From NCBI GenBank assembly GCA_003164095.1, contig PLRX01000043.1, positions 47,618 to 111,617 on the forward strand: a stretch of DNA of 64,000 nt, read 5' to 3'. The translations under genes and the position numbers were made by a program. Under the pieces are notes generated by a model. That model had not been told where the DNA came from and searched no databases. It saw only the letters and a list, made by a program, of their open reading frames with translations. The DNA is from Acidimicrobiaceae bacterium (GTDB lineage: Bacteria; Actinomycetota; Acidimicrobiia; Acidimicrobiales; RAAP-2). Within the stretch, counting starts at the first letter, position 1; the number at the start of each line of letters is the position of its first letter. Of this stretch, positions 11,445 to 34,937 are shown piece after piece.

Positions 11445-11611
11445 CACCCCAGGATAGGGACGGCGGGCGGATCGGGCGGCCAGTCGTCCGTGAACCCGTG
11501 CGACGCCGCCCACGGTCGCCGCCGATGGGCGGGTTGGAGGAGACGCGCGCTGACCGGCCGTGCCCTCACGTTCCGGCGGCGGCGCACCCCTCGGCGTGCC
11601 ACGATCGGGGG

Positions 11612-12357: not shown

Positions 12358-13922
12358 TCATGGCCCTGGGCGTCGCCACGGTGCTCGTCGACGTCGGCCG
12401 CGGCCTGCGCGAGGGCGTGTACATGTTCTGGGAGACGCTGTGGGCCCTCGTCCTCGGCTTCACCCTGTCCGGCGTGGTGCAGGCCTTCGTGTCGAAGGAG
12501 CGGATGCGGGCCAAGCTCGGCGACCACGGTCCGGCATCCGTGGCGCGGGCCTCGGGCTACGGCATGGTCTCGTCGTCCTGCTCGTACGCCGCCTCGGCCA
12601 TGGCCAAGTCCCTGTTCGTCAAGGGGGCCGACTTCACCACCTCCATGGTGTTCATGATCGCCTCGACCAACCTCGTGGTCGAGCTGGGGATCGTGATGCT
12701 CGTGCTGCTCGGCTGGCAGTTCGCGGTGGCGGAATTCGTCGGCGGACCGATCATGATCGTCCTGCTGGCGCTCTCGGGCAGCATGGTGTTCACGCCGAAG
12801 CTGCTGGCCGTGGCCCGCCGTCGCCTGGGGGGCGGCAACCACGGGGGACATGACCACGCAGCCATGGTCCGGGTGTCCGAGGATCGTCAGGAGGAGCTGG
12901 AGGCGGAGCCGTGGGGCGAGAAGGTGCGTTCCCCTGCCGCATGGTCGGATGCCTCGAGCTACGCGGTGGCCGACGCCACCATGCTGCGCAAGGAGCTGCT
13001 CATCGGATACACGGTGGCGGGCCTGCTCGCCGTCCTCGTCCCCGACCACGTGTGGAACGCACTGTTCCTCCACGGCCACGGGTTCTGGACGACCCTGGAG
13101 AACGCCATGGTCGGCCCACTCATCGCTGTCGCCAGTTGGGTGTGCTCGATCGGCAACGTGCCACTGGCCGCCGCGCTGTGGGGCGGGGGCATCAGCTTCG
13201 GAGGGGTGATCGCCTTCATCTTCGCCGACCTCATCGCCATGCCCCTGATCCTGGTCTACCGGAAGTTCTACGGCTGGCGCCTGACTGTCCGGATCGTCGG
13301 TCTCTTCTACGTGCTCATGGTGGTGGCGGGCCTGGCCACCGAAGGAATCTTCCGGGCCGTCGGCGCCGTGCCGGTCAACCACGACGTCGGAGTGCGACCG
13401 GCGCACGTCGAGTGGGACTACACGACCTTCCTGAACCTTGTCTTCCTGGTGGTGGCCGCCGCTGTGTGGTGGCTGGCCCGGAACCGAGAGCGCTTCGGCG
13501 GCGGAGTCGGCTATGCCGTCGACCCGGTCTGCGGCATGCAGGTGCGCACGGCCGACGCCCCGGCGCGCACCGAGCACGACGGTGCCACCGTGTGGTTCTG
13601 CGCCGACCGTTGCCGTGAGCGGTTCGAGTCCGACCCCGAGCGGTACCTGTCATCGGGCACCGTCCACGAGTCGATGGTCGCACCCGTGGGCGCGGAACCG
13701 GTGGCGGTCACCCTCACCCGGCGGACGCCCGCGCCCACCGGGGGGCACGTGGACGACGCGGCCTCCGACGGCTCCGGGCAGACCGTCGTCGACCCGGTGT
13801 GCGGCATGGTCGTCGACCCGGCCCACGCCGCCGCCCATCGGGTGCGCGACGGAGTCGACCACTGGTTCTGTGGAACGGGATGTGCCGAGCGGTTCGACGC
13901 GGAGGCGACGACGGGGGGCTGA
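12354..13922 (+). CDS. ArsP/DUF318-type permease fused to two YHS/TRASH metal-binding domains (SO_0444-like Cu/Zn efflux permease)
   Basis: Multi-TM permease (SSCSYAASAMA, CSIGNVPLAAALW) followed by two DPVCGM...WFC modules. GTGA overlap with the csoR stop. Confidence 0.8.
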   Translation: MIMALGVATVLVDVGRGLREGVYMFWETLWALVLGFTLSGVVQAFVSKERMRAKLGDHGPASVARASGYGMVSSSCSYAASAMAKSLFVKGADFTTSMVFMIASTNLVVELGIVMLVLLGWQFAVAEFVGGPIMIVLLALSGSMVFTPKLLAVARRRLGGGNHGGHDHAAMVRVSEDRQEELEAEPWGEKVRSPAAWSDASSYAVADATMLRKELLIGYTVAGLLAVLVPDHVWNALFLHGHGFWTTLENAMVGPLIAVASWVCSIGNVPLAAALWGGGISFGGVIAFIFADLIAMPLILVYRKFYGWRLTVRIVGLFYVLMVVAGLATEGIFRAVGAVPVNHDVGVRPAHVEWDYTTFLNLVFLVVAAAVWWLARNRERFGGGVGYAVDPVCGMQVRTADAPARTEHDGATVWFCADRCRERFESDPERYLSSGTVHESMVAPVGAEPVAVTLTRRTPAPTGGHVDDAASDGSGQTVVDPVCGMVVDPAHAAAHRVRDGVDHWFCGTGCAERFDAEATTGG

Positions 13923-21666: not shown

Positions 21667-21771
21667 TCAGGCCCTGTCGGCCGTCGTCGCGTCAGCCTCG
21701 ATGGCCGTCTGGTCGGCCGTGAGTTGCTTGGCCTCGACGCCGGAGAACGCGAAGAAGGTGTCAAGGGCCAT
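21667..21771 (-). CDS. candidate 34-aa small ORF (MALDTFFAFSGVEAKQLTADQTAIEADATTADRA)
   Basis: ATG with GGAG 7 nt upstream. 30 of 33 sense codons end in G/C. It lies 62 nt upstream of the SDR gene. Confidence 0.35.
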   Translation of the reverse strand: MALDTFFAFSGVEAKQLTADQTAIEADATTADRA

Positions 21772-22288
21772 GGTGGCTCCAGTTGGCGGGGCCGACGGCA
21801 GCTCCGCCGGTGCGGGTGGCCCAGGCTACCGATGCGCCGCGGTGATCACCATCGGCGGCCCGATCCCATGCGGGCCGCGGCGTCCGGGCCAGGCGCCGGT
21901 CGGGGATGAACCAGAGGACGGCCACCGCGGCGTAGACGGCATAGGACAACCAGGAGGAGACGAAGGCCAGGCCCATGCCCGCCCCCAGGCCGACGAGACC
22001 GTAGCTCGCCGCTGGCAGGGCATGGCGGGGGAAGCGGCCGACCCACGCCGTCACGATGGGGAACAGGGACAGCCAGAACAGCAGGAACAGGTTCGACCAC
22101 ATGACGGAGCCGCTGATCCGCTCGGCCGATCGGAGCAGATGGTGGTGGTTGACCCAGTAGATCCCCACCATCACGAAGCTGAGGACGTAGACCAGCAGAT
22201 GGGGAGCCAGGCCGCGTAGCGCGCCCGGAGTCGACCCGTCCGGCGTGGGGATCGAGAACGCCATGATCGTGATGATCACGGCCATCAC
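21761..22288 (-). CDS. TMEM175/DUF1211-family K+ channel-like membrane protein (N-terminus apparently frame-shifted)
   Basis: FSDGVMAVIITIMAF and YWVNHHHLL. The conserved R-x-x-AFSDG lies upstream of the first usable start. A GTG at 22332 opens VRLNETDRLE in another frame. Confidence 0.65.
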   Translation of the reverse strand: MMAVIITIMAFSIPTPDGSTPGALRGLAPHLLVYVLSFVMVGIYWVNHHHLLRSAERISGSVMWSNLFLLFWLSLFPIVTAWVGRFPRHALPAASYGLVGLGAGMGLAFVSSWLSYAVYAAVAVLWFIPDRRLARTPRPAWDRAADGDHRGASVAWATRTGGAAVGPANWSHHGP

Positions 22289-22491
22289 GCCGTCGCTGAA
22301 CGCTCGAGGCGGTCGGTCTCGTTCAACCGCACCTGAGGGAGCGCTCCGGGGTCGTCACGGCATCAGCATCGCGCCACCATCGGGCGGCCGGCGGGACCAC
22401 ACCCGGGTCCCGGCAGGCCGTGGGTCGGGCCGCTTCTGCACCCCACGGCATGGGCGGTGCGCAGTGGAAGCGCCGGTCGTACGCTCTCGAC

Positions 22492-23760
22492 ATGCCCCAG
22501 CGTCCCAGGTCCCGGACCTCCGTTCCGCCCCCTGCCCGCCCCCTGGTGGTGGCGGCGGCGGCCCTCTGCCTGGTGGTCCTCATTGCGGCCGCCTGCGGCT
22601 CCTCGTCCGCCTCGACGACCACCTCCATGACGGCCGCCCCGGACGCCGCTGTCCGGGCGGCCGTGGCGGAAGGTGCCGCAGCGGCCCGGACCGATGCCGC
22701 CGGGGTCGAGTGGCTGTGCCGGCCCGGTCACCTGCCTGACCCGTGTGTCACCGACCTGACCGCCACGGTCCTGCCCGTCTCTGGCCCGACGACACAGCAG
22801 CACGCCTCGATCGCCACCGATCCGCCCATCGACTGCTTCTACGTCTACCCGACGGTCAGCATGCAGGCGGGTGTCATCGCCGACCTCCACGTGGACCCGG
22901 CCGAGACCTCGGTGGCCAGGAGCCAGGCGTCCCGCTTCTCGCAGACCTGCCGGGTGTGGGCGCCGATGTACCGGCAGATCACGGTGAAGGGCCTGACCGC
23001 CGGCGCCCGCGCGTTGGCGGCCGAGGTCACCGCCTACGCCGGCGTGCAGGCGGCCTGGCAGGACTACCTGGCCCATGACAACGACGGGCGCGGCGTGATC
23101 CTGATCGGGCACTCGCAGGGAGCCGGCATGCTGATCGGGCTGATCAGGCGCCAGATCGACGACGTCCCGGCGGAGCGGAAGCTGCTCGTGTCGGCCATGA
23201 TCCTCGGCGGGAACGTCACCGTCCTGGTCGGTCGGACAGTGGGTGGCAGCTTCCAGCACGTGCCGGCGTGCACCTCGGATACCCAGACGGACTGTGTCGT
23301 CGCCTACTCGAGCTTCGACCAGCCGCCGCCGGCCGACTCGTTGTTCGGACGGCCCGGCCAGGGCGTCAGCAACCTGTCGGACGGGACGGCCACCGCCGGG
23401 CTCCAGGTGCTGTGCACGAACCCGGCCGACCTGTCGGGCAACGCGGCCACGCCGCTCACTCCGTACTTCCCCTCCAAGGCATTGTTGAGCGGCCTGGGTG
23501 GCCTCGGCGGACTGACGCCGCCTGCCGTCGGGACCCCGTGGGTGACCGAGCCGCAGCTCTACTCGGGGCAGTGCCTGTCGCAGGGAGGCGCCACCTGGCT
23601 CCAGGTCAGTGCGCCGATCACGCCGGGCGACACCCGGCAGGTCGTCGGCCAGACACTGGGGCCGACCTGGGGACTCCATCTGGTGGACGTCAACATCGCG
23701 CTCGGCAACCTGGTCGACCTGGCACGGTCGGAGTCCGCGGCCTACGCCGCCCAGACGTGA
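22492..23760 (+). CDS. secreted alpha/beta-hydrolase-like lipoprotein (DUF3089-like)
   Basis: Lipobox IAAACG and GHSQG nucleophile elbow. ATG 22492. Confidence 0.7.
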   Translation: MPQRPRSRTSVPPPARPLVVAAAALCLVVLIAAACGSSSASTTTSMTAAPDAAVRAAVAEGAAAARTDAAGVEWLCRPGHLPDPCVTDLTATVLPVSGPTTQQHASIATDPPIDCFYVYPTVSMQAGVIADLHVDPAETSVARSQASRFSQTCRVWAPMYRQITVKGLTAGARALAAEVTAYAGVQAAWQDYLAHDNDGRGVILIGHSQGAGMLIGLIRRQIDDVPAERKLLVSAMILGGNVTVLVGRTVGGSFQHVPACTSDTQTDCVVAYSSFDQPPPADSLFGRPGQGVSNLSDGTATAGLQVLCTNPADLSGNAATPLTPYFPSKALLSGLGGLGGLTPPAVGTPWVTEPQLYSGQCLSQGGATWLQVSAPITPGDTRQVVGQTLGPTWGLHLVDVNIALGNLVDLARSESAAYAAQT

Positions 23761-24160: not shown

Positions 24161-24185
24161 GGTTGGACGACTGACGCCGGGGTAG
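24161..24185 (+). promoter_or_regulatory. weak SigB/F-like promoter motif GGTTG-N14-GGGTAG
   Basis: Lies 75 nt upstream of the PfpI-like GTG. Confidence 0.3.
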
Positions 24186-24260
24186 GGAAGTGCGCTACGG
24201 CTACCTGGTCGACTTCCTCGCGCCGCGGCGCGAGGGCACGCGACGGAAGCGGAGTGCAGA

Positions 24261-24923
24261 GTGTCACAGGGACCGAAGCGGGAGCAGGGGTGGGAAGGGC
24301 GGCGCGGTGCCCTCGACGGGGCGCGAGTGGCGTTCGTCGTGGCCAATGGAGGTGCCGAGCGCCGCGAGCTGGTGGAGCCCTGGCGTGCGGTGGTCGCCGC
24401 AGCCGGCATCCCACTGCTCGTGGCACCGGAGGCAGACGACGTGCTCCTGCTGGACCACCTCGACTCCCGCACGTGTTGGAAGGCTGATCTCACCACGGAC
24501 GAGCTCCAGGTCGAGGACATCGATGCCCTGGTGCTCTGCGGTGGGCTTGCCGGCGCGGACCGGTTGCGGGCCGATGGTCCGGCGGTCGAGCTCCTGCGGG
24601 ACGCCTTCGACGGTGGTCGGCCAGTGGCTGCCATGAGCGATGCCCCATGGGCGTTGGTCGAGGCGGACGTGCTCGAAGACCGGACACTGACGTCGTCGGC
24701 GAGCCTGCGCACGGAACTCGAGAACGCAGGGGCCGAGTGGGCCGACGAGCCGGTGCACGCCTGTAGACACGGACCGAACACGTTGGTCACCAGCCGGGGG
24801 CAAGATGACCTCGAGGCGTTCTGTGACGCATTCGTCCGGGTGGTGTCCGCAGCCCAGCGACAGGAGGGTCTCCGACCCGGAGGAGGAGTCCGTGTCCGAG
24901 CCGATCCCGGAGGCAGACAGTGA
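24261..24923 (+). CDS. DJ-1/PfpI-family protein with non-canonical active site; true 3' end probably 24984 after a frame shift
   Basis: Collinear with PfpI, but AAICHGP is replaced by AAMSDAP. After about 24870 the high-GC3 frame switches to one encoding an acidic tail that ends at TGA 24982-24984. Confidence 0.7.
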   Translation: MSQGPKREQGWEGRRGALDGARVAFVVANGGAERRELVEPWRAVVAAAGIPLLVAPEADDVLLLDHLDSRTCWKADLTTDELQVEDIDALVLCGGLAGADRLRADGPAVELLRDAFDGGRPVAAMSDAPWALVEADVLEDRTLTSSASLRTELENAGAEWADEPVHACRHGPNTLVTSRGQDDLEAFCDAFVRVVSAAQRQEGLRPGGGVRVRADPGGRQ

Positions 24924-25012
24924 CGCGACCTCGGAGGCCTGGGAGACGACGGAGCCGATGGACGGCGAGGCCCCGACGGGCTGACTCGGGAGGCCGACGC
25001 AGCGGCTCCTGA

Positions 25013-25591
25013 TCAGACGCTCACCAGTCCGTCCTCGGCTCCCAGCTTGATCAGACACCACACCTGCTTGCCGCCCGGCAGGAAGTCGACGCCCCAGCGG
25101 TCGGCCAAGCGGTCGATGATGAGGGTGCCGCGACCCGTCGGGTCGTCCGCATCGGCGGTTCGTGGTCGGGGTGGCTCCCTGCTGCCGTCCGCCACTGCGA
25201 TCACGACGTCCTCGGACCCTCGCACCACGGAGAGTACGATCGGTGGCATGCCGTGGCGAACGGCGTTGGCCATCAGTTCGGATCCGCACACGGCGGCCCG
25301 TTCGGCCCGCTCATGGCTGACGGATCCCAGGGTCTGACGGATCATGACCCTGGCGTCACGGACCGACGTCGGCAGGGACGCCATCCACACGTCCTCCCGG
25401 TACAGCGGCTCGACGTGTGCGGGAGTCACCGACTCACCGTCCGAGCGGCGCACGGTGAGTCGCACGAGCGGTTCGTCCTCGGGTGCCTCCACTGTCGGTA
25501 CATTCGGCTCCATCCTCGTCGTTGCGCCCCTACCCGTCGGCATCTCGGTGAAACCTTGTGACGGTTCCGGCCGGACCGGATCGGCGGACAC
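25013..25591 (-). CDS. RsbW/SpoIIAB-type anti-sigma factor serine kinase (HATPase_c_2), orphan copy
   Basis: N-box SELMANAVRHG, G1-like VADGS and G2 GRGTLIIDRLADRWG. The start is uncertain (25591, 25543 or 25513). Confidence 0.75.
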   Translation of the reverse strand: MSADPVRPEPSQGFTEMPTGRGATTRMEPNVPTVEAPEDEPLVRLTVRRSDGESVTPAHVEPLYREDVWMASLPTSVRDARVMIRQTLGSVSHERAERAAVCGSELMANAVRHGMPPIVLSVVRGSEDVVIAVADGSREPPRPRTADADDPTGRGTLIIDRLADRWGVDFLPGGKQVWCLIKLGAEDGLVSV

Positions 25592-25868
25592 CGTCGATCG
25601 CCATGGGCGGCTCGGGGACGGGGTCGGGCAGCGGGGACGGTCCGGGTGACGGCGGGACAGGTTCCGGGGGTACAGGCGCCGGCTCGGGGTCGACCGGCGG
25701 GATCACCGCGGTGAACGGGGTCTCTGCGGTCAGGACATGTGTCGGCCCCGTGGGCCGGAGCAGGTTCGCAAGAACGTCGTACACGTGTGGCTCCACCTCC
25801 GTCAGGCCCGGATCTCTGTCCGGGCCGTCGTTTCCTTCCTCCTTCGAGCACCCTGAAACCGGAGCCGT

Positions 25869-25895
25869 CGTTTCCCACGGCGCCCCGCCGGGTAG
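25869..25895 (+). promoter_or_regulatory. SigB/F-like promoter CGTTT-N16-GGGTAG; ATG 9 nt after the -10 (leaderless geometry)
   Basis: Read directly upstream of the hemerythrin ATG 25905. Confidence 0.5.
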
Positions 25896-25904
25896 TACCA
25901 CGGC

Positions 25905-26477
25905 ATGAGGAGATCGACTACCGCACCCAACCGTGCCCTGGACATCGTGGACCTGCTGACCGAGGAGCACGCCGCGCTGCGGACGTTGGCCGAGCCGGTG
26001 GGCGGGCGGGACGACGCCGACGGTTCGGCCTATCTCGCCTGGAGCGATCGGGTGGTCCGGCACGAGATCGCCGAAGAGCTGGTCGTCTATCCGGCCCTCC
26101 TGTCGTTCGACGGCGGGATGGCCGTCGCCGACTCGAGGCTCGAGGACCAGTCGGACATCGAGTGCCAGCTCGTCGCCCTCGGCCAGGAGGCCGCCGGGAC
26201 ACCCCGCTTCCGCGCGGGCACTGCGCGGCTCGTGCTCGGCCACCTCGCGCACCTCGAGCGTGAGGACTCGCAGGTGCTGCCGATCCTGGCCACCCGGGTG
26301 AGCCGTCGCCGCCGGCTGGATCTGGGACGCCGGTACCGGAAGGTCCAGCAGGTGGCCCCAATGCGCCAGTTGCCGGACGGGACCAGGGTCCCAGTCGGGC
26401 GGACAGTGGTGGACCGCACAGCGGCGCTGTCGGTGTGGATGCGGGACGTGGCAGCCGCCTCGGGACTTGCGGGCTGA
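25905..26477 (+). CDS. hemerythrin HHE cation-binding domain protein
   Basis: Motifs IVDLLTEEHAALR, HEIAEELVVYP and HLAHLERED. Confidence 0.8.
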   Translation: MRRSTTAPNRALDIVDLLTEEHAALRTLAEPVGGRDDADGSAYLAWSDRVVRHEIAEELVVYPALLSFDGGMAVADSRLEDQSDIECQLVALGQEAAGTPRFRAGTARLVLGHLAHLEREDSQVLPILATRVSRRRRLDLGRRYRKVQQVAPMRQLPDGTRVPVGRTVVDRTAALSVWMRDVAAASGLAG

Positions 26478-26524
26478 CCACACCGGGGCCGACTTCATGG
26501 CACCGGTCCGTGCTCCACACCTGA

Positions 26525-26567
26525 ACGACGCCGGCCCCGTCCTCGAGGGGAAGGGGGCCGGCGTCGT
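26525..26567. terminator. bidirectional hairpin (14-bp perfect stem ACGACGCCGGCCCC / GGGGCCGGCGTCGT, 15-nt loop)
   Basis: Lies between the convergent hemerythrin and STAS genes. There is no U-tract. Confidence 0.55.
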
Positions 26568-26687
26568 CTGTGTGAGGTGGAGAGCGTTGCTCGGCGAGGA
26601 TGCCCATGTCGAGGCTGCGCCAAACCTGACCCGGAGGGCAGGCCGCTCCCATGGGCGCCCAGGCGCCCCCTGGCCGACGCGACGGCG

Positions 26688-27110
26688 TCAGCTGGGCCGT
26701 GGCGCCCGGCGAGGCAGCCCGGTGAGTGCCTGCGCCCCGGAGGAGCGGAGGAACAGCAGCAGTTCGAGCGGACTGTCCGCGTGCATCGGATGTAGTCCCC
26801 GTACCCGACAGATGACACCACTGCTGCGGAGGCGGGCCCAGAGTTGAGCCAGGGCGACACCACCGGACTCGTCGATGCTGCGCAGGTCGGCACAGTCGAG
26901 TACGACATCGTCGAAGCCGGCCCGGAGGAGCTGGTCGTGCTGATCGTCGACCGCCACCGAGGAGGTGGCATCCAGCGTGCCGGACATGTTGAGGACACAG
27001 TGGTGGTCGCGTGACGTGAGGTTCATCACGAGGCGGGTGCCCGGCGTCTGGCCATGTCGGTGGTGACGGACCCGGGTGGAGGGGGTGGCTGGGGTGCGTG
27101 CGGCGGTCAT
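26688..27110 (-). CDS. STAS-domain anti-sigma-factor antagonist paralogue
   Basis: VLNMSGTLDATS...VVLDCADLRSIDESGGVALAQL. ATG 27110 sits 9 nt after a GGGTAG -10 motif. An alternative start is ATG 27026. Confidence 0.7.
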   Translation of the reverse strand: MTAARTPATPSTRVRHHRHGQTPGTRLVMNLTSRDHHCVLNMSGTLDATSSVAVDDQHDQLLRAGFDDVVLDCADLRSIDESGGVALAQLWARLRSSGVICRVRGLHPMHADSPLELLLFLRSSGAQALTGLPRRAPRPS

Positions 27111-27119
27111 GCAGCGGCC

Positions 27120-27145
27120 CTACCCGCTGGTGCCGGGGTCAATCC
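27120..27145 (-). promoter_or_regulatory. SigB/F-like promoter GGATT-N15-GGGTAG (minus strand), leaderless geometry
   Basis: The reverse complement of 27120-27145 gives the motif. ATG 27110 follows after 9 nt. Confidence 0.45.
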
Positions 27146-27205
27146 GGCCCATCCTGCGGTACCGTCTGACCAGGCCGGACGGGCCGGACCGAGGCCCACA
27201 CGGTC

Positions 27206-27241
27206 GTTTCCGCGCCATGTGGTTTCCGCGCCATGTGGTTT
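27206..27241. repeat. exact tandem repeat GTTTCCGCGCCATGTG x2.25
   Basis: Units 27206-27221 and 27222-27237 are identical, then GTTT follows. Each junction recreates GGTTT. Confidence 0.95.
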
Positions 27242-27262
27242 AGGCACTCGGTGGCCGGGTAG
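27237..27262 (+). promoter_or_regulatory. SigB/F-like promoter GGTTT-N15-GGGTAG of the STAS/RsbW-like/sigma operon
   Basis: Matches the GGTTT / GGGTA type consensus I recall for SigB/SigF-class sigma factors. It lies 17 nt upstream of ATG 27279. Confidence 0.55.
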
Positions 27263-27278
27263 GTGGGGTCGACGGCAT

Positions 27279-27647
27279 ATGTCCGCCGGACGGAAGGGAC
27301 CCAGGGTGGAACAGGACATCGAGATCGATGTGGAGCGCAGGGGCGGATCGACGATCGTGTCGGCGCGCGGCGAGGTGGACGTCGCCACCGCACCGGCGCT
27401 GCGCGAGGGCCTCGACGAGGCCGTCGCGGCCGACGCCGGAGCAGTCGTGGTCGACCTGACGGGTGTGACGTTCATCGACTCGACGGGGCTGGGCGTGCTC
27501 ATCGGCGCCCGGAAGCGCTGCCTCGACGCCGACCTGGAACTTCGGGTGGTGGTGACCGAGCCCCGCATCCTGAAGGTCTTCGAGATCACCGGGCTCACGG
27601 AGCTGTTCGCCATTCATGAGTCCCTCGAGCCGGCGCTCGAGGCCTGA
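27279..27647 (+). CDS. STAS-domain anti-sigma-factor antagonist (RsbV/SpoIIAA-like)
   Basis: ARGEVDVATAP...VVVDLTGVTFIDSTGLGVLIGA carries the canonical DSTG phosphoserine motif. GTG 27306 with a GGAAGGGA RBS is an alternative start. Confidence 0.85.
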   Translation: MSAGRKGPRVEQDIEIDVERRGGSTIVSARGEVDVATAPALREGLDEAVAADAGAVVVDLTGVTFIDSTGLGVLIGARKRCLDADLELRVVVTEPRILKVFEITGLTELFAIHESLEPALEA

Positions 27648-27648
27648 G

Positions 27649-28098
27649 ATGTCCGTGCACGTCTCTCCCGACACCTCCGACTCCGATGCCACCGATCGGG
27701 GAACCCAGGTTCCCGTCCCTCATGTGGAACTGGTGCTGTCCGTCGAGGATGACCTTCTGGTGCTCGCCCGCCTCACGGTGTCGGCCGTGGCGTCCCGCGC
27801 CGGATTCGACGTCGAGGAGATCGAGGACCTGAGGTTGGCCGTCGACGAACTGTGCCTCCTGGTCCTGCGGGGCCGCCGCACGGGCCGGCTGGTACTCGCC
27901 ATGGCGATCGAGCCGGGTCGCATCGACATCTGGTGTCGGTACGACGGCACCGAGGACCCGCGTGATGCCGGAGCCGAGGACGAGAGCGACCTGTCGCAAC
28001 GGATCCTGGATGCGCTGGTCGATGAGCATGGCCCGGCAATGCTCGACGGTCGGACCGGAGCGCACCTGTGCAAGCAGCGCGCGCTTGCCGATGACTGA
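27649..28098 (+). CDS. RsbW-like anti-sigma factor with degenerate ATP-binding motifs
   Basis: LVLARLTVSAVASRAGFDVEEIEDLRLAVDELCLLVL has no N-box Asn-x3-His, and I see no GxG boxes. ATG lies 1 nt after the STAS stop, and the stop overlaps the sigma ATG. Confidence 0.7.
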   Translation: MSVHVSPDTSDSDATDRGTQVPVPHVELVLSVEDDLLVLARLTVSAVASRAGFDVEEIEDLRLAVDELCLLVLRGRRTGRLVLAMAIEPGRIDIWCRYDGTEDPRDAGAEDESDLSQRILDALVDEHGPAMLDGRTGAHLCKQRALADD

Positions 28099-28838
28099 TG
28101 CCGGCACCCAAGCGGACCGTCACGACGGAACCGAGCTTCGCCGAGTTCGCCGCCACACGTGATCCCCGGCTGCGCGAGTCCCTGGTGGAGGCCCATCTCG
28201 GGCTCGCCCACCAGCTGGCTCGTCGCTTCGCCAACCGGGGTGAATCCCACGAGGATCTCGTCCAGGTGGCGTCCGTCGCCCTGATCCACGCGGTCGACCG
28301 CTTCGACCCGGACCGCGGCTTCGAGTTCAGCACGTTCGCCACCCGGACGATCCTGGGTGAGTTGAAGCGCCATTTCCGCGACAAGGGGTGGGCGGTGCGT
28401 GCTCCGCGGCGGATCCAGGAGCTCTACCTCGAATTGGGAGCCGCCACCGACGCGCTCGCCCAGGAGCTCGGGCACCCACCGACCGTCCCGGAACTCGCGG
28501 CCCGCACGGGTGCCTCAGAGGAGGCCGTACTCGAGGCCATGGAGGCCGGGCAGGCCTACCGGGCGACGTCGATCGACGCACCGGACCGTCGCGAGGGCAC
28601 GATCGCCTCCCGCCTCGGCCAGATCGATGCCGGCTTCGACAGGGCCGATAACCACCAGATGCTGGGTGCAGCACTCGCGCAGCTTCCCGAGCGGGAGCAG
28701 CAGATCCTGCGGCTCCGCTATGTCGACGGCCTCACGCAGTCGCAGATCGCCGAGCGGATCGGGGTGAGCCAGATGCACGTCTCGCGTCTGTTGACGGCCA
28801 GCATCGCCCGGTTACGCGAGTCGTTCGCCGAGACGTAG
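28098..28838 (+). CDS. SigB/SigF-family (group 3) RNA polymerase sigma factor
   Basis: Region 2 (DLVQVASVALIHAVDRFDP, FSTFATRTILGELKRHFRD), region 3, and region 4 (LTQSQIAERIGVSQMHVSRLL). TAG stop. Confidence 0.9.
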   Translation: MPAPKRTVTTEPSFAEFAATRDPRLRESLVEAHLGLAHQLARRFANRGESHEDLVQVASVALIHAVDRFDPDRGFEFSTFATRTILGELKRHFRDKGWAVRAPRRIQELYLELGAATDALAQELGHPPTVPELAARTGASEEAVLEAMEAGQAYRATSIDAPDRREGTIASRLGQIDAGFDRADNHQMLGAALAQLPEREQQILRLRYVDGLTQSQIAERIGVSQMHVSRLLTASIARLRESFAET

Positions 28839-28858
28839 ACCGCAGTGCGGTCCCGGCG

Positions 28859-29308
28859 TCAGGCCCGGTTCGGCAGCCGGACGACGTTCAGGAAGAATTC
28901 GCCGACCTGGCGGACCACGGACAGGAACCGGTCCAGCTCGGCCGGCTTGGTGACGAATGCGTTGGCATGGAGCTCGTAGCTCCTACGGACGTCCTCGACC
29001 GCCTTGGACGTGGTCAGGACGACGACTGGGATGGACCGGAGGCCGGGGTCAGACTTGATGCGGGCCAGTACCTCCCGACCGTCGAGCCGGGGCAGGTTGA
29101 GGTCGAGGAGGACCAGGTCGGGACGGGGGGCGCCGCTGTGCCCGCCCTCGCGCCGCAGGAAGTCCACTGCCTCCTCGCCGTCCTCTACCACGTGCACGGC
29201 GAGCGGGCCGGTGGCGCCGGCGAGTGCCTCCCTGGTCAGCAGGACGTCGCCGGGGTCGTCCTCGACGACGAGCAGGTGCTTCGTGCCGGCCACGGTCGCC
29301 TCGGTCAT
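28859..29308 (-). CDS. single-domain response regulator (CheY/Rcp1-like)
   Basis: LLVVEDDPGDVLL, DLVLLDLNLPRLDG and VVVLTTS. ATGA overlap with the kinase stop. Confidence 0.85.
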   Translation of the reverse strand: MTEATVAGTKHLLVVEDDPGDVLLTREALAGATGPLAVHVVEDGEEAVDFLRREGGHSGAPRPDLVLLDLNLPRLDGREVLARIKSDPGLRSIPVVVLTTSKAVEDVRRSYELHANAFVTKPAELDRFLSVVRQVGEFFLNVVRLPNRA

Positions 29309-30888
29309 TGCACTGTCTCCCCCTGGGTCGCCGGCAGGGTGAAGCATAGGCGGGCGCCCCCGCTGTACTCGCGGTCGACCCAGATGGACCCGCCGTGGAA
29401 TTCGACGATCTTGCGACACAGCGCCAACCCGATACCGGTGCCGCCGTAGGCGTCGCGCGCATGGAGGCGCTGGAAGATGACGAAGACGCGGTCAGCATGG
29501 CGGGGCTCGATCCCGATCCCGTCGTCGGTCACCTCGAACCTCCACAAGGTCCCGTCCCGGTGCGCGTCGACTTCGACCACCGGCGGTGTGCCGTCGGCGA
29601 ACTTGACGGCGTTGCCGATCAGGTTCTGCCAGAGCGACGTGAGCAGGACACGGTCGCCGCGGACGCTCGGCAGTGGGCCCACCCTCACCGTGGCACCGAC
29701 GTCCTCCACGAGTCCCGACAGACCGGCCAGCGCTCCGTCCACGCACTCGCCCATGCCCACGGTGACGAACGCGTCGGTCGTCCGCCCGACACGAGAGAAC
29801 GTCAGCAGGTCGTCGATCAGGGCCTGCATGCGGCGGGCGCCGTCGACGGCGAACCCGATGTACTCGTCCCCTCTCGGGTCGAGCTGGTGCTCGTACCGCT
29901 GCTGGAGGAGCTGCACGAAGCTCGTCACCTTCCTGAGCGGCTCCTGGAGGTCGTGTGAGGCGACGTAGGCGAACTGCTCGAGCTCCTCGTTCGACCGTTG
30001 GAGGTCCCGGTTCCGCTCGGCCAGATCGGCACGTGCCGTCGCCACCCGGTCGAGTTCGCTGACGATGCGCAGGCGCATCGCCTCCACGTCCGTCCCCACG
30101 CTCCGGATCTCGGGCGGTCCGGTGACGACCACGGACTGCCCGAGGTCACCGTCGGCGACCCGGCAGACCGTGGTGCCGAGCCCGGCGAGCGGTTCGATCA
30201 CCCATGACCGGAGCGACCGTTCAAGGGCGATCCCGGCGGCCACCACGAGGAGGAGGCCGACCACCAGTGCGACGATCAGTTCGATCGTGGCATCGGAGAA
30301 CGCCGCGGCGCTGGAGGCCCGTTCGTTCGCCAACGCGGCCTCCAGCGTCGCGAACCGCTGACGAATGACGTCGAAGCGTGCCTTGCCCGGCCCGAGCAGC
30401 TCCTGTTGGACCTGGAGCGGGTCTCCGGCCTGCGTCGACAGGACGGCCGGCAGGGCGGACGACGTGTTCCACGCCTGGCCGGCCGACTCGGCCCGGTGCA
30501 CCAGGGCGAGCAGCTGGGGGTGGCCGAGGAGGTCGTCCGCGAGCCGGGCTGCGGCAGCCTGCCGATCGTGATCACCCGAGAGGTACGGTGCCAGGAAGGC
30601 GGGGTTGCGGCTGAGGATGTACCCGCGGATTCCCGTCTCCTCGTCGAGGTAGGCCACGAAGAGCTGGTCGGCGTCGAGGCTCGCCGGGTCGATCTGCGAC
30701 AGCAGGACGCGCCGGGTGTCGGTCAGGTGGACGATGCCGATGGTAGCCACGGTGGCGACCGCGGCTACCAGGACGGTGCCCAGGACGAACAGGAGCCTGA
30801 GGCGACGTCGCAGGCTCATGGTGTGCAGACGGCCGGTGCCGACCGCGACCTGACGTGTCGCGTCGACCGCTCGGGTGGTGGCGGTCAC
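29305..30888 (-). CDS. sensor histidine kinase, CHASE3-TM-HAMP-HisKA-HATPase
   Basis: CHASE3-like EETGIRGYILSRNPAFLAPY between two TM segments, H-box FAYVASHDLQEPLRKV, N/G boxes NLIGNAVKF and GTGIGLALCRKIVEFHGG. The start is GTG 30888 (GTGA overlap with the upstream stop) or ATG 30819. Confidence 0.85.
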   Translation of the reverse strand: MTATTRAVDATRQVAVGTGRLHTMSLRRRLRLLFVLGTVLVAAVATVATIGIVHLTDTRRVLLSQIDPASLDADQLFVAYLDEETGIRGYILSRNPAFLAPYLSGDHDRQAAAARLADDLLGHPQLLALVHRAESAGQAWNTSSALPAVLSTQAGDPLQVQQELLGPGKARFDVIRQRFATLEAALANERASSAAAFSDATIELIVALVVGLLLVVAAGIALERSLRSWVIEPLAGLGTTVCRVADGDLGQSVVVTGPPEIRSVGTDVEAMRLRIVSELDRVATARADLAERNRDLQRSNEELEQFAYVASHDLQEPLRKVTSFVQLLQQRYEHQLDPRGDEYIGFAVDGARRMQALIDDLLTFSRVGRTTDAFVTVGMGECVDGALAGLSGLVEDVGATVRVGPLPSVRGDRVLLTSLWQNLIGNAVKFADGTPPVVEVDAHRDGTLWRFEVTDDGIGIEPRHADRVFVIFQRLHARDAYGGTGIGLALCRKIVEFHGGSIWVDREYSGGARLCFTLPATQGETVQ

Positions 30889-32135
30889 GGTGCGTGCGCG
30901 GCACGGTTCGACAGGATGACGACGGCGACGTCGTCGGCCAGGGGCTCGCCGTTGGCGGCCTCGGCCGCGTCGACGAGCGCATCCGCCAGGCGCCGGAGCG
31001 AGCTCGTGGGCCCGGCGACCGCGGCCGCACGGGCGAGCCGGACCGTGTCGAAGCGCTCCGTGCCGTCGCTGTCGTGGCCCTCCACTACGCCGTCCGTGTA
31101 GACGACGAGCGTCCAGTCCTGGCCGAGGTCGATCTCGGTGGGAGGCCACGTCGGGTCATCGAAGACACCGAGCAGGGGCCCTCGGCGGTCGGGTGGTATC
31201 TCGAGGACGTCGTCGTGGCCGACGACCAGTGGACTCGGGTGTCCGGCCAGCCGCATCCGGAGGAACCGTGCAGTCGGGTCGAACTCGAGGTCGCACATCG
31301 TGGCGAAGGTCTCGTCGGACTCCCGCTCCGAGCGGAGGACGCGTTCCACGCCGTGGAGCGTCCGCTCGGGATCGGCACCGGAGAGGACGAGGGCACGCCA
31401 CGCCACTCGTAGTGCCACGCCGAGTGCAGCCTCGTCGGCCCCATGGCCGCAGATGTCTCCGACCGTCACCCGCACCGTCCCGTCCTCGAGCTCGATGGCG
31501 TCGAAGAAGTCTCCTCCGAGCAGTGCGCGCCGACCGCCTGCCTCGTAGCGCACGGCCCAGTGGAAGTGGGGATTGCCGATGATGGGACGGGCGACCAGGC
31601 CCCGCTCCATGCGTGCGCTCTCGGCCCGGAGCAGCAGCGCCTCGCCCATCTGACGGGAGGACTCCTGGCTCTGCCGCCGGGCGATGGCATAGCGGATCGA
31701 CCGGGCGAGCGTCTCGTGGTCGACCCTGCCCTTGATGAGGTAGTCCTGCGCCCCCAGGTACACGGCGTCCGCCCCGACGGCCCGGTCCATGAACCCGGTG
31801 AGCACGACCACCGCGGCAGCGGTCGGATGGGCAACGACGGCGCGAACGGTCTCGAGGCCGGACGCGTCGGGCAGCCCGAGGTCCACGAGCACGCAGTCGG
31901 CCCCGAGATCCAGCTCTGCCAGTCCGTCCGTCAGGTTCCGGCACCACGCCAGGTCGTAGCCGCCGCCTGCCAGCTCGAGGAGCTCACGCACCAGGAACGC
32001 ATCGCCCGGATCGTCCTCGACGAGGATGATCCGCAGCGGGGCCACCGTTGGCACGCCGGGTGGGTCACCTATCCCCTCCGGCTCGTCCGGGTACTCTGAC
32101 GAGCCGTCCCTGTGGGGATCGATGAGATCACTCAT
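30885..32135 (-). CDS. response-regulator receiver fused to PP2C/SpoIIE phosphatase (RsbY/RsbU-like)
   Basis: REC (ILVEDDPGDAFL, VLVDLGLPDASG) followed by PP2C (LLGGDFFDAI, VGDICGHGADEAALG, LVVYTDGVVE). Confidence 0.85.
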   Translation of the reverse strand: MSDLIDPHRDGSSEYPDEPEGIGDPPGVPTVAPLRIILVEDDPGDAFLVRELLELAGGGYDLAWCRNLTDGLAELDLGADCVLVDLGLPDASGLETVRAVVAHPTAAAVVVLTGFMDRAVGADAVYLGAQDYLIKGRVDHETLARSIRYAIARRQSQESSRQMGEALLLRAESARMERGLVARPIIGNPHFHWAVRYEAGGRRALLGGDFFDAIELEDGTVRVTVGDICGHGADEAALGVALRVAWRALVLSGADPERTLHGVERVLRSERESDETFATMCDLEFDPTARFLRMRLAGHPSPLVVGHDDVLEIPPDRRGPLLGVFDDPTWPPTEIDLGQDWTLVVYTDGVVEGHDSDGTERFDTVRLARAAAVAGPTSSLRRLADALVDAAEAANGEPLADDVAVVILSNRAAHAP

Positions 32136-32261
32136 CGCCACCTCGCGCTGGCGATGCGCGGACTTCCACTCCTGGCCGCACTGGGCTCTCCCGGCCGGAC
32201 GACGGGGCGCACCATGCACTGATGGTCGCACCCTCTGTGCCGCCGGACAAGTGCGCCTGGA

Positions 32262-32296
32262 CCCTCGCCGACGCCGGAATCCGGCACCGGCGAGGG
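32262..32296 (-). terminator. hairpin CCCTCGCCG...CGGCGAGGG with an inner GCCGGAATCCGGC stem, downstream of the CsbD gene
   Basis: Read from the sequence. It begins 5 nt after the CsbD stop. Confidence 0.5.
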
Positions 32297-32300
32297 GTTA

Positions 32301-32537
32301 TCACCTCTGATGGGCTCGCTGCTCGGCCTCGTGTGCCGATGCCTCGGCGCGTGATGGGTCGGCTTCTGCCTCCTTCTCGGCCACGTCCCGCTCGGCGGCG
32401 GCCTTCTCCTGCTGGGCCCGGCCCTCGTGGCGCAGGTCGTCATCGCAACGCAGGGCACCCGCCGCCTCTCCTGCCTTACCCTTCAGCTCCTCGACGACCC
32501 CCGATGCGGCGGCGCCTGGCCCGGTCTCCTTGTCCAT
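32301..32537 (-). CDS. CsbD-family general stress protein
   Basis: LKGKAGEAAGALRCDDDLRHEGRAQQ matches the CsbD repeat. GAAGGGAG RBS. Confidence 0.75.
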   Translation of the reverse strand: MDKETGPGAAASGVVEELKGKAGEAAGALRCDDDLRHEGRAQQEKAAAERDVAEKEAEADPSRAEASAHEAEQRAHQR

Positions 32538-32618
32538 GATGATGCTCCCTTCGTAGGACGGAATATGGCGTCGATCGACGCGTGTGATCCAGGGCTCGCT
32601 GATCGGAGGGATCCCCTG

Positions 32619-32783
32619 TCACCAGCGGTAGAAGCGCCTGCTCCCCGCGTTCTCGCCTCTGCCTATGGCGAACCCGATGATCCACAGCACCAGGAGCACG
32701 GCTGCCAGGACCCACAGGACGTGGAGTGTGAAGCCGAGGCCGGCGACGATGAGGACGACCAGCAGCGCGACGAGGAGGATCAT
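32619..32783 (-). CDS. 54-aa hydrophobic membrane protein (two TM helices)
   Basis: MILLVALLVVLIVAGLGFTLHVLWVLAAVLLVLWIIGFAIGRG... with a GGAAGGA RBS. Confidence 0.6.
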   Translation of the reverse strand: MILLVALLVVLIVAGLGFTLHVLWVLAAVLLVLWIIGFAIGRGENAGSRRFYRW

Positions 32784-32836
32784 GGGGATTCCTTCCGTTC
32801 GTGGTACGGGACCCGGGTGGGACTGACGTGACGACA

Positions 32837-32862
32837 CTTCCCGCACCGGGCACTGACAAACC
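32837..32862 (-). promoter_or_regulatory. SigB/F-like promoter GGTTT-N15-GGGAAG upstream of the small-membrane-protein/CsbD pair
   Basis: The reverse complement of 32837-32862 gives the motif. It lies 53 nt upstream of ATG 32783. Confidence 0.4.
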
Positions 32863-32886
32863 TCTGTGGAGCGACCGATCCGCACG

Positions 32887-33360
32887 TCAGCGGGCCGGGT
32901 GACCGGGGTCGAACGACGGAGCGCTGCCGTACGTCAGTAGACGCTGATCCGGGCCCGGTGCCGCGTCGATGGGTGACGTGTACAGCGTCTGGTGGTCGCC
33001 GACGTCGAAGCGGTCGAGGATGTGCACGGCCATCCACGCCGCACGGTCGTCGAGTACCGGGACGCCGCCGGGTCCCGGGCGCCACGCCGTGTCGGCGAAC
33101 TTGTCGACGGTGTCCCTGCTGAGTTCACCGAACAACGACGCGGTGTCGACCTGATCCTCGCCCAACAGGTGGAGGCAGAGCACCGAGGCTCGCCGGGCGA
33201 CATCGAACGTGTGATTGACACGGGACAGGCAGACGAGGAACCGCAGGGGATCGATGCTGCACTAAGTCGTGAAGCCGACTAGGCAACCGCTGCGATCGCC
33301 GTCCGGTGTCGCGGTCGTCACCACGACCAACGGGCAATCGGTGCGACCACTGAAGTGGGC
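32887..33360 (-). pseudogene. flavin reductase-domain gene interrupted by an in-frame TAG (33262-33264); no usable start codon
   Basis: Continuous homology ...CPLVVVTTATPDGDRSGCLVGFTT*CSIDPLRFLVCLSRVNHTFDVARRASVLCLHLLGEDQVD... is broken only by the TAG. Confidence 0.65.
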
Positions 33361-33569
33361 CGTGGCATCGGAGTCAGGACGTGTGGGCAGAGGTGGGGGT
33401 GGCCCACACGACGGGACAGTGCCATGTCCTGGTCCTACCCTCAGCAGGCGTGAACCATGCGCGGTGGTCCGCCGTGTGTGGTGGTCCGTGTGGTGCCGGA
33501 GTGTGTGCGACGCCGAACGGGGTAGAACCGGACAGCTGCGGCATCGCGCCGCAACGACGGGAGGCTCCG

Positions 33570-34937
33570 GTGGAAGAAGAGGTCGATGTGGTGGTGATCG
33601 GGATGGGCCCGGCCGGTGAGGAGGTTGCGGGCCGACTTGCCGCAGCCGGACTCGACGTGGTCGGCGTCGAGCAGGAACTGCTCGGCGGGGAGTGTCCGTA
33701 CTGGGGCTGCGTGCCCACCAAATTGATGGTGCGTGCGTCCGACGCGCTGGCCGAGGCGGGCCGTTCGGTCGCACTGGCCGGCACCATTACCACGGGTTCC
33801 CGATGGGATCCGGTGGTCGAGCGGATCGTCGACGCCACGGACGGATGGGACGACGCCCAGGCCGTGAAGCGCTTCGGGCTCCAGGGCGGGAGGCTCCGGC
33901 GGGGTCGTGGCCGGTTGGTCGGACCATCCGGTGTCGATGTCGACGGTGTCGTCCTCCGTGCCCGGCGCGCCGTGGTCGTGGCCACCGGCGCACGGCCGGT
34001 CATCCCTGACGTGCCCGGCCTGGAGGGCACACCGTTCTGGACCAATCGGGACGCGGTTGCGGCCCGGCGAGTGCCCGACTCCCTGGTAGTGCTCGGAGGG
34101 GGTGCCGTCGGGGTCGAGCTGGCCCAGGTCTTCCGGCGGTTCGGCGCCATCGTCTCGGTAGTGGACCCGGCGCCCCGGCTGCTCGGAGGTGAGGAGCCGG
34201 AGGCGGGCGACCTGTTGGCTCAGACCTTCGCCGACGAGGGCATCGACGTGCGGACGTCCACCGAGGTCACTTCCGCCTACCACGACGGCGACCGGTTCAC
34301 CCTCCTCGTGTCCGGTGCGGAGGCGATCTCTGCCGACCACCTGCTCGTTGCCACCGGGCGCCGACCGGACCTGCGCTCGCTCGGAGTCGCGTCCCTCGGC
34401 TTGGACGACTCGGCTGCCCAGGTCACGGTCGACCACCGCCAGCGCGTGCAGGGAGCCGATGGCGTGTGGGCGGTCGGCGACGTGACCGGTCGCGGTGCGT
34501 ACACCCATGTCGCCATGGCTCAGGCCGATGTCGCGGTGCGGGACATCCTGGGCGAGGACGTCGGAACCGGTGTCACCCGCACCGTGCCACGGGTGACGTT
34601 CACCGACCCCGAGATCGGCGCGGTCGGGATGACCGAACGGGAGGCGCGCGCCGAGTTCGGACACGTGCGTGTGGGTTCGACGGACCTGGCGGACGAAGCG
34701 CGTGGCTGGATCCACGGACCTGGTGGCCGTGGTCTCGTCAAGGTGGTGGAGGATACCGGGCGAGGGGTGCTGGTCGGAGCGACGTCGATCGGCCCCAGTG
34801 GTGGAGAGGTGCTGGGTCTCCTCACCCTCGCCGTCCACGCCGAGGTGCCGGTCGACCGGCTCCGCGACATGGTCTACGCCTACCCGACCTTCCATCGCGC
34901 CGTAGGAGCCGCCGTACGTGACCTGGCGAGCGCGTGA
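33570..34937 (+). CDS. class I pyridine nucleotide-disulfide oxidoreductase (dihydrolipoyl dehydrogenase / mycothione reductase-like)
   Basis: DVVVIGMGPAGEE, redox CxxxxC (GGECPYWGCVPTK), second Rossmann fold VVLGGGAVGVE, and C-terminal dimerisation domain AYPTFH. GTG 33570 has a GGGAGG RBS. Confidence 0.85.
   Translation: MEEEVDVVVIGMGPAGEEVAGRLAAAGLDVVGVEQELLGGECPYWGCVPTKLMVRASDALAEAGRSVALAGTITTGSRWDPVVERIVDATDGWDDAQAVKRFGLQGGRLRRGRGRLVGPSGVDVDGVVLRARRAVVVATGARPVIPDVPGLEGTPFWTNRDAVAARRVPDSLVVLGGGAVGVELAQVFRRFGAIVSVVDPAPRLLGGEEPEAGDLLAQTFADEGIDVRTSTEVTSAYHDGDRFTLLVSGAEAISADHLLVATGRRPDLRSLGVASLGLDDSAAQVTVDHRQRVQGADGVWAVGDVTGRGAYTHVAMAQADVAVRDILGEDVGTGVTRTVPRVTFTDPEIGAVGMTEREARAEFGHVRVGSTDLADEARGWIHGPGGRGLVKVVEDTGRGVLVGATSIGPSGGEVLGLLTLAVHAEVPVDRLRDMVYAYPTFHRAVGAAVRDLASA

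Follow-up and report, generated by a model that had tools for sequence, protein, structure and literature searches.

A probable RsfSR-type SigF partner-switching island with its own two-component input in a contig of an Acidimicrobiaceae bacterium

The stretch examined here, hereafter the window, comprises 64,000 nucleotides of contig PLRX01000043.1 (assembly GCA_003164095.1, Acidimicrobiaceae bacterium), and all coordinates are window positions. Within it, an island spanning about 8.7 kb carries the genes of a SigB/F-type partner switch next to those of a CHASE3 kinase/REC-PP2C relay. The G+C content of the window is approximately 70%, and the closest named relatives of its proteins were found in Acidimicrobiales and Acidimicrobiaceae metagenome-assembled genomes (MAGs). 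By open reading frame (ORF) listing, start-codon inspection, and Pfam and NCBIfam searches, 12 genes were located in the island, all at the coordinates proposed in an initial annotation of this DNA. The domains and gene junctions given there were borne out as well, with the CsbD and operon anti-sigma assignments falling below Pfam thresholds. The genes of the sensor cassette, of the sigma operon, and of two further partner-switching proteins are as follows.

30885–32135, minus strand: REC-PP2C (SpoIIE-type) phosphatase of 416 amino acids; Pfam SpoIIE (E 2e-41) and Response_reg
29305–30888, minus strand: non-hybrid sensor histidine kinase of 527 amino acids, or 504 from an ATG at 30819; Pfam CHASE3, HAMP, HisKA and HATPase_c
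28859–29308, minus strand: stand-alone Rcp1/RcpA-type receiver of 149 amino acids; Pfam Response_reg; coupled translationally to the kinase via ATGA
27279–27647, plus strand: STAS anti-sigma-factor antagonist of 122 amino acids, or 113 from a GTG at 27306 (ORF 27054–27647); Pfam STAS (E 3e-22)
27649–28098, plus strand: UsfX/RsbW1-like anti-sigma factor of 149 amino acids; weak HATPase_c_2
28098–28838, plus strand: SigB/SigF/SigG-family group 3 sigma factor of 246 amino acids; Pfam Sigma70 r2, r3 and r4
25013–25513, minus strand: single-domain RsbW-like protein of 166 amino acids from the likely ATG at 25513 (ORF to 25591); HATPase_c_2 PF13581 (E 1.6e-10)
26688–27110, minus strand: divergent STAS protein of 140 amino acids, or 112 from an ATG at 27026; Pfam STAS (E 2e-10)

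In the plus-strand operon, a gap of 1 nucleotide separates the STAS stop codon from the anti-sigma ATG, and the anti-sigma TGA and the sigma ATG have one base in common. The minus-strand cassette is read in the order REC-PP2C (32135–30885), kinase (30888–29305) and REC (29308–28859), with a GTGA overlap at the first junction and an ATGA overlap at the second, and is convergent to the sigma operon. Scans of the island for sigma-70 promoters and intrinsic terminators found nothing, which at 70% G+C carries no information. That the sequence is more than a one-off assembly follows from the recurrence of the island in samples from JGI, ENA and Logan. The same island was present at all 6 places compared, 3 of which were >99.98% identical at the DNA level; gene calls made independently on identical metagenome contigs gave the same genes, and the identical sigma protein is recorded on contigs in 52 blocks of the sequence collection. 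One metagenome scaffold, L006, apparently without the REC-PP2C gene, was rejected as a scaffolding artefact and not a natural variant, the affected segment consisting of a run of N and about 125 nucleotides of unrelated filler.

L006 6078–6212, equivalent to window 30944–30953: scaffold gap with a run of N and foreign filler

The phosphatase at the head of the sensor cassette retains both of its functional signatures. Among 16 homologues of 49–100% identity, residues E40, D41, D42, D85, T113, K135, D209, D212 and D227 were invariant, as were G230-H231-G232, D348, D401 and D402, so that the receiver signature (E40 D41 D42, D85, T113, K135) and the PP2C metal-binding aspartates are intact. Its relatives in the PDB include the Pseudomonas aeruginosa REC-PP2C protein 3eq2, the closest solved full-length structure (E 5e-17), and Rv1364c. 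In the kinase, the order of elements is a first transmembrane helix, CHASE3, a second transmembrane helix, HAMP, HisKA and HATPase_c, with hydrophobic segments at residues 29–58 and 192–227 and a phytochrome-kinase-like H-box, SHDLQEPL. Pfam searches found no Response_reg, GAF or PAS domain in it, which agrees with its earlier description as non-hybrid. The free receiver matched RcpA (1k68, E 1e-40) and Rcp1 (1i3c, E 3e-33) in the PDB; a literature search returned no experimental study of the free receiver of this cassette. Furthermore, no methyltransferase domain was found by Pfam and gene calls among the island genes or their immediate neighbours.

The convergent operon encodes a sigma factor together with two of its predicted regulators. 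The STAS protein scored 96 bits against TIGR00377 (NCBIfam), above the cut-off, and its PDB matches include Bacillus subtilis RsbV and Mycobacterium tuberculosis RsfB (8ih8_A), SpoIIAA being matched as well. In the alignment of STAS proteins, the serine of its DSTGLG motif aligns with the residue that we take to be the phosphorylated serine of RsbV and SpoIIAA. The following protein has M. tuberculosis anti-SigF RsbW/UsfX as its top PDB match (8ih8_C, E 1e-7). Its HATPase_c_2 match reached 25.2 bits against a Pfam cut-off of 27.4 and covers only profile positions 6–83 of 127, and in two alignments the Mg-binding N-box asparagine is replaced by leucine (arginine in UsfX) and no G2 glycines are present. 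The comparison with the SpoIIAB reference in the RsbW alignment is to be weighed with caution. Because of the N-box replacement, the missing G2, the partial and below-threshold HATPase_c_2 match and the proximity to UsfX, this anti-sigma factor probably has no kinase activity. The sigma factor itself passes the SigB/SigF/SigG subfamily model TIGR02980 (257.7 bits, cut-off 234.35); its best NCBIfam model is actinobacterial SigF NF005514 (267 bits, below the cut-off of 372), and its PDB matches are SigB/F-type sigma factors, including region 4 of M. tuberculosis SigF.

Two further partner-switching genes lie apart from this operon. The orphan RsbW-like protein keeps both an N-box (ELMANAVRHG) and a G2 motif (GRG), an assignment that rests on an alignment with DevS together with the RsbW-family alignment; its NCBIfam match is to the kinase portion at the C-terminus of the Streptomyces RsbA family (NF041045), and against the PDB it gave only marginal matches, to the DevS ATP-binding domain. 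It is the best candidate for an RsbW2-like serine kinase of the STAS antagonist, a role that its motifs suggest and that stays uncertain. The two anti-sigma paralogues of the initial annotation thus stand as two RsbW-like genes, better described as one probably kinase-dead anti-sigma factor and one candidate STAS kinase. The divergent STAS protein carries a glutamate (IDESGG) in the alignment column of the RsbV/SpoIIAA phospho-serine. This glutamate and two cysteines are conserved in the orthologue of the relative L087 (78–79% identity), and an RsfA-like redox role for the two cysteines is a matter of speculation; against the PDB, the protein gave only a weak MlaB-like match. In L087, the orthologues of the orphan RsbW and of the glutamate-bearing STAS protein (Glu-STAS) had been overlooked by the gene caller. 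An extra gene there (L087 16371–17414, plus strand), encoding MEDS and HATPase_c_2 domains of the RsbA-family anti-sigma/kinase type, lies between the orphan RsbW and DJ-1 genes and is absent from the window.

A common promoter motif links these genes to one another. In Mycobacterium smegmatis, the SigF consensus is GTTT-N14-19-GGGTA, often just 8–11 nucleotides from the start codon (PMC4694148). By scanning the whole window for a strict motif, GTTT-N13-18-GGGTA, it was found that 4 matches occur against 0.20 expected, 3 of them in the island; a relaxed motif gave 6 against 1.9 expected, with 5 of the 6 within the 8.7-kb island (binomial p = 2.5e-4). The island holds six motifs, every one correctly oriented upstream of a gene.

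24162–24185, plus strand: GTTG-N14-GGGTAG upstream of the DJ-1/PfpI gene, from the relaxed scan; an equivalent lies upstream of the L087 DJ-1 operon
25531–25554, minus strand: GTTT-N15-GGGTA upstream of the orphan RsbW-like gene, from the strict scan
25870–25894, plus strand: GTTT-N16-GGGTA ending 10 nucleotides before the hemerythrin ATG, a leaderless-type spacing; the same at the L087 hemerythrin gene
27120–27144, minus strand: GATT-N15-GGGTAG, its GGGTA ending 10 nucleotides before the divergent STAS ATG at 27110
27238–27262, plus strand: GTTT-N15-GGGTAG upstream of the STAS/anti-sigma/sigma operon, from the strict scan; a conserved motif lies at the L087 STAS operon
32837–32861, minus strand: GTTT-N15-GGGAAG (SigF/SigB-type) upstream of the membrane-protein/CsbD unit; the same GGGAAG variant at the L087 orthologue

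In L087, the same motifs precede the orthologous genes, and the divergent STAS orthologue has GTTG-N14-GGGTAG 10 nucleotides before its ATG. In front of the sensor operon, the motif scans found no such motif. Since the motifs match the consensus and are conserved in L087, they argue that the sigma factor autoregulates its own operon and that the neighbouring genes, including the hemerythrin gene, are members of its predicted regulon. In addition, the DJ-1, hemerythrin and membrane/CsbD genes are likely outputs, because SigF-type motifs precede them. The fourth strict match (10230–10254, plus strand, GTTT-N15-GGGTA) is not part of the island and runs antisense to an RlmN-like radical-SAM gene at 10392–11768 on the minus strand. 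It was not counted in the system, as there is no plausible gene downstream, and it either arose by chance or is the promoter of an antisense transcript or small RNA.

The genes that the motifs connect with the switch, beyond the partner-switching genes themselves, are the following.

24261–24923, plus strand: DJ-1/PfpI family protein, 198 amino acids from an alternative start at 24327; Pfam PF01965 (E 1e-30)
25905–26477, plus strand: hemerythrin HHE-domain protein of 190 amino acids; Pfam PF01814 (E 2e-8)
32301–32537, minus strand: CsbD-like small protein of 78 amino acids; weak Pfam CsbD match (E 1e-4, 22.6 bits, cut-off 40)
32619–32783, minus strand: hydrophobic protein of 54 amino acids; ORF with a good Shine-Dalgarno sequence, GGAAGGAA

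The DJ-1/PfpI protein also matched NCBIfam TIGR01382 (E 9e-29, below the cut-off), and its gene is a probable regulon member. The hemerythrin is a single-domain protein in which Pfam found no signalling domain; orthologues occur in L087 and in a second relative, L090, and the gene is absent from the linked loci of L088 and L091. The initial annotation had regarded this gene as encoding a possible sensor of the locus. The gene is present as described, and the SigF-type motif that precedes it makes a SigF-dependent output or feedback element the more probable role than that of an input sensor. A hemerythrin–SigF link has, moreover, already been published: the hemerythrin-like MsmHr of M. smegmatis acts as a repressor of sigF expression (PMC4295536). 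A CsbD-like orthologue was found in L090, and the gene of the 54-amino-acid protein adjoins the cassette both in relatives with the sigma operon (L087, L090 and L091) and in L092. The latter, an Acidimicrobiales MAG of 54% identity, has no sigma operon yet keeps the 54-amino-acid protein by the cassette (11692–12470), with an unrelated hemerythrin gene beside that protein.

The REC-PP2C protein has >5,000 homologues at E <= 1e-20. To place the island among them, a genome survey with one genome per species was used, from which the 80 best loci were returned; these come from Acidimicrobiia, Solirubrobacterales, Lentzea, Actinomadura, Actinoplanes, Frankia, Streptosporangium, Streptomyces and others, with no Mycobacteriaceae locus among the 80. 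The full cassette of REC-PP2C, CHASE3 kinase and stand-alone REC was found in the same order in 64/80 Actinomycetota loci, the order being conserved across Acidimicrobiia, Thermoleophilia and many Actinomycetes. Of the 64 complete cassettes, 63 have a lone REC domain as their third protein; the additional free receiver pointed out in the initial annotation is therefore present but not special, being the norm for the cassette. Neighbouring STAS and RsbW genes were sought with a six-seed STAS hidden Markov model (HMM) and single-seed phmmer, which replaced iterative HMMs built from two STAS and two RsbW proteins that proved too weak or mixed. The cassette is convergent with a sigma/anti-sigma/STAS operon in L087, L090, L091 and L088, which show 79, 74, 62 and 61% REC-PP2C identity, respectively, and a check of neighbourhood conservation in relatives thus found the linkage retained. 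L087 and L090 also keep the Glu-STAS, hemerythrin and orphan RsbW genes, and Acidimicrobiia relatives at 52–54% identity have the cassette only. Because most loci hold the complete cassette, few lie beside partner-switching genes and the linkage is confined to relatives of 61–79% identity, the cassette is an old, widespread actinobacterial module, and its physical linkage to the sigma operon is a trait of this clade.

The closest precedent is the RsfSR system of M. smegmatis, in which the operon rsfR (REC-PP2C, MSMEG_6131), rsfS (MSMEG_6130) and MSMEG_6128 (a REC-HTH protein) is convergent to rsfB-rsbW2 (Oh & Oh, J Biol Chem 2024; PMC10950880). RsfS is a CHASE3 kinase with two transmembrane helices, explicitly non-hybrid, that phosphorylates RsfR on Asp74; RsfR dephosphorylates phospho-RsfB, and its phosphorylation lowers this activity. 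RsfSR induces the SigF regulon upon respiration inhibition (PMC10950880). On the partner-switching side, Oh et al. (2020; PMC7693655) showed that the anti-SigF factor RsbW1 lacks kinase activity, that Ser63 of RsfB is phosphorylated by RsbW2 alone, that RsbW3 acts as an antagonist, and that the STAS protein RsfA responds to redox state.

By comparing architecture, motifs and the published description, it was found that the island shares with this system its phylum, Actinomycetota; a non-hybrid kinase with CHASE3 as sole sensor domain between two transmembrane helices; a REC-PP2C phosphatase; and the order REC-PP2C, kinase and third receiver gene, convergent with a STAS-RsbW-type operon. The likeness extends to a SigF-family sigma factor with GTTT-N-GGGTA promoter motifs, to an anti-sigma factor without kinase motifs accompanied by a separate RsbW paralogue that keeps such motifs (here the N-box and G2, with an atypical G1), and to the presence of one phosphorylatable STAS antagonist (the RsfB Ser63 equivalent) and one non-canonical one. 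The arrangement differs in several respects. Here, sigma and anti-sigma genes share an operon with the STAS gene and abut the sensor cassette, whereas rsbW1-sigF (MSMEG_1803/1804) of M. smegmatis lies far from rsfB-rsbW2 (MSMEG_6127/6129). The RsbW protein encoded beside the STAS gene is of the anti-sigma type instead of the kinase type, and the candidate kinase gene is monocistronic and about 2 kb away, unlike rsbW2, which is co-transcribed with the STAS gene. Furthermore, the third gene encodes an Rcp-type bare receiver in place of the REC-HTH protein MSMEG_6128, no equivalent of RsbW3 was identified in the island, and the host is Acidimicrobiia-like and not a member of the Mycobacteriales.

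Other known systems resemble the island in part. The RsbK-RsbY-RsbV-RsbW-SigB pathway of the Bacillus cereus group likewise leads from a CHASE3 kinase through a REC-PP2C phosphatase to a STAS antagonist of a SigB/F-family sigma factor, is clustered with the sigma operon, and includes in its design a receiver domain beyond that of the phosphatase. However, RsbK is of the hybrid type, with additional cytoplasmic sensor domains of GAF/PAS type, and bears at its C-terminus a receiver, which is inhibitory (PMC4574943), whereas the kinase here is non-hybrid and the receiver separate; and RsbK is tuned by the methyltransferase RsbM, for which the island holds no counterpart. For RsbW of B. cereus, kinase activity is expected, as in its Bacillus homologues (PMC7693655), in contrast to the island anti-sigma factor without kinase motifs. 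Phosphorylation is proposed to activate RsbY in B. cereus but inhibits RsfR in M. smegmatis. A literature search for RsbK/RsbY in actinobacteria gave no match. The RssB-like protein PA2798 (3eq2) and the HsbR-HsbA pair of P. aeruginosa also join REC to PP2C in the control of a STAS antagonist within a partner switch; input there comes via Hpt phosphorelays from hybrid kinases, HsbR has an extra kinase domain, and the targets are FlgM/RpoS pathways. As with cyanobacterial Rcp1/RcpA of phytochrome kinases, the free receiver is encoded directly downstream of its presumed kinase, but this kinase senses via CHASE3 instead of a phytochrome module, and the receiver shares it with REC-PP2C.

Altogether, the domains, catalytic residues, promoter motifs, conserved synteny and M. 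smegmatis precedent suggest that the island is probably a complete RsfSR-type SigF partner-switching system with its own two-component input, all parts being in one place, as the earlier proposal of a partner switch wired to a CHASE3 kinase/REC-PP2C relay had anticipated. In the mechanism envisaged, the UsfX/RsbW1-like protein (27649–28098) would hold the sigma factor (28098–28838) inactive and would be unable to phosphorylate its antagonist. The STAS antagonist (27279–27647), when unphosphorylated on the DSTGLG serine, would bind the anti-sigma factor and so free the sigma factor. A separate RsbW-like kinase, for which the orphan at 25013–25513 is the best candidate, would phosphorylate and thereby inactivate the antagonist, and REC-PP2C (30885–32135) would take the phosphate off again. 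The CHASE3-HAMP kinase (29305–30888) would phosphorylate Asp85 of REC-PP2C and so set phosphatase activity, with a sign that cannot be read from the sequence. The free receiver (28859–29308) would be a second phospho-acceptor, most likely one that competes for phosphate or serves as a sink for it, and so a counterpart in trans of the inhibitory receiver that RsbK carries in cis at its C-terminus. Once freed, the sigma factor would transcribe from GTTT-N15-16-GGGTA-type promoters, giving positive feedback through its own operon and negative feedback through the candidate kinase; further targets would be the Glu-STAS paralogue, the hemerythrin, DJ-1/PfpI, and the small membrane and CsbD-like genes. 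We infer each of these steps from homology. This applies to which protein phosphorylates the antagonist and what the phosphatase acts on, to whether receiver phosphorylation raises or lowers phosphatase activity, to what the free receiver does, and to whether this sigma factor uses the motifs.

Several observations weigh against this reading. Within 10 kb of the cassette, STAS or RsbW-like genes occur in only 4/80 loci and a SigB/F-type sigma gene in 1/80; adjacency to the sigma operon being clade-specific, the phosphatase may act on different substrates or on further ones. The orphan RsbW-like protein has an atypical G1 box without the canonical DxGxG, and its gene is separate from the STAS gene, at about 2 kb, unlike the rsfB-rsbW2 operon; for both reasons, a kinase role can be ascribed to it only with reservation. 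The promoter motifs are no more than matches to a consensus. In addition, RsfS does not phosphorylate MSMEG_6128, the product of the third gene of the M. smegmatis operon, and SigF control does not require it (PMC10950880); the role given to the free receiver is therefore speculative.

The main rival explanation is that the adjacency is incidental: the cassette would be independent, its phosphatase acting on a substrate encoded elsewhere, and the sigma operon would be run by its own STAS and RsbW-like proteins only. The self-contained nature of the cassette, complete in 64/80 loci, its occurrence in 76/80 loci without a STAS or RsbW gene within 10 kb, and the relatives at 52–54% identity that carry it without a sigma operon all fit such independence. 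Nevertheless, it is judged unlikely, as the linkage has been kept in four independent relatives despite differing flanking genes, and the homologous M. smegmatis architecture adjoins the gene of its proven substrate, rsfB (PMC10950880). STAS phospho-proteins are, moreover, the substrate shown for RsfR in that study and the substrate reported for RsbY, as cited there.

A classical Bacillus-type loop, in which the operon RsbW-like protein would be both anti-sigma factor and STAS kinase and the orphan RsbW/divergent STAS pair would serve another sigma factor, is quite unlikely. The leucine in place of the N-box asparagine and the missing G2 speak against kinase activity of the operon protein, whose below-threshold HATPase_c_2 match covers just the N-terminal two thirds of the profile, and its closest solved relative is UsfX/RsbW, whose M. 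smegmatis counterpart RsbW1 is without kinase activity (PMC7693655). Nor does the divergent STAS protein, with glutamate at the phospho-site, make an obvious kinase substrate, and the promoter motif common to all these genes suggests a single regulon. Such a loop would account for the gene order STAS/RsbW/sigma, which is that of rsbV-rsbW-sigB, for weak partial NCBIfam matches of the operon protein to low-GC RsbW models, and for the separate transcription of the orphan RsbW and divergent STAS genes. That the hemerythrin is the primary O2/NO/iron sensor of the switch, with the CHASE3 kinase secondary, is highly improbable for a single-domain protein without a signalling domain, whose gene bears the leaderless-spaced motif of a regulon member and is missing from the L088 and L091 linked loci, even though the gene lies inside the island and has orthologues in L087 and L090, and the protein has in MsmHr a counterpart that modulates sigF expression (PMC4295536).

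Within the RsfSR-type reading, a branched switch is a tentative possibility, with one kinase, two receivers and an Rcp-type phosphate sink that tunes REC-PP2C, supplemented by Glu-STAS as a phosphorylation-independent feedback regulator. The sink receiver may set the threshold, or even the sign, of REC-PP2C control, and Glu-STAS may exert a "phosphomimetic", possibly redox-gated feedback on the orphan kinase or the anti-sigma factor. The work on M. smegmatis would have missed the sink feature, because the third gene there encodes a REC-HTH protein that RsfS does not phosphorylate.

Outside the island, the upstream neighbours are a TMEM175-like potassium-channel gene (21761–22288, minus strand) and a gene for a DUF3089 protein (22420–23760, plus strand). 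On the other side, a flavin-reductase-like gene (32887–33774, minus strand) adjoins the island, and a pyridine-nucleotide-disulphide oxidoreductase gene lies at about 33570–34937 on the plus strand. The flavin-reductase-like gene is split by an in-frame TAG at 33264–33262, where relatives have glutamine, and its halves appear as separate ORFs of 98 and 170 amino acids. The same TAG is found on contigs L001, L002 and L006, so either the gene is a pseudogene in which a nonsense mutation has become fixed or the codon is read through.

The combination of parts, which the initial annotation did not know as a described system, is that of M. smegmatis RsfSR (PMC10950880, PMC7693655), so that essentially the same architecture has already been characterised in this lineage, at the level of the phylum. 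The island is a new example of the known RsfSR-type circuit, and the features that set it apart from the M. smegmatis system, though real, are incremental: the co-location of sigma and anti-sigma genes, the Rcp-type third gene, the monocistronic candidate kinase, Glu-STAS and an Acidimicrobiia-like host. It opens no new class of system. The RsfSR-type circuit has so far been shown only in M. smegmatis, and this locus extends it, on the reading considered probable here, to uncultured Acidimicrobiia-like actinobacteria. By placing the parts and the predicted regulon genes side by side, it offers guilt-by-association support for annotating the widespread cassette as a sigma-factor input module.

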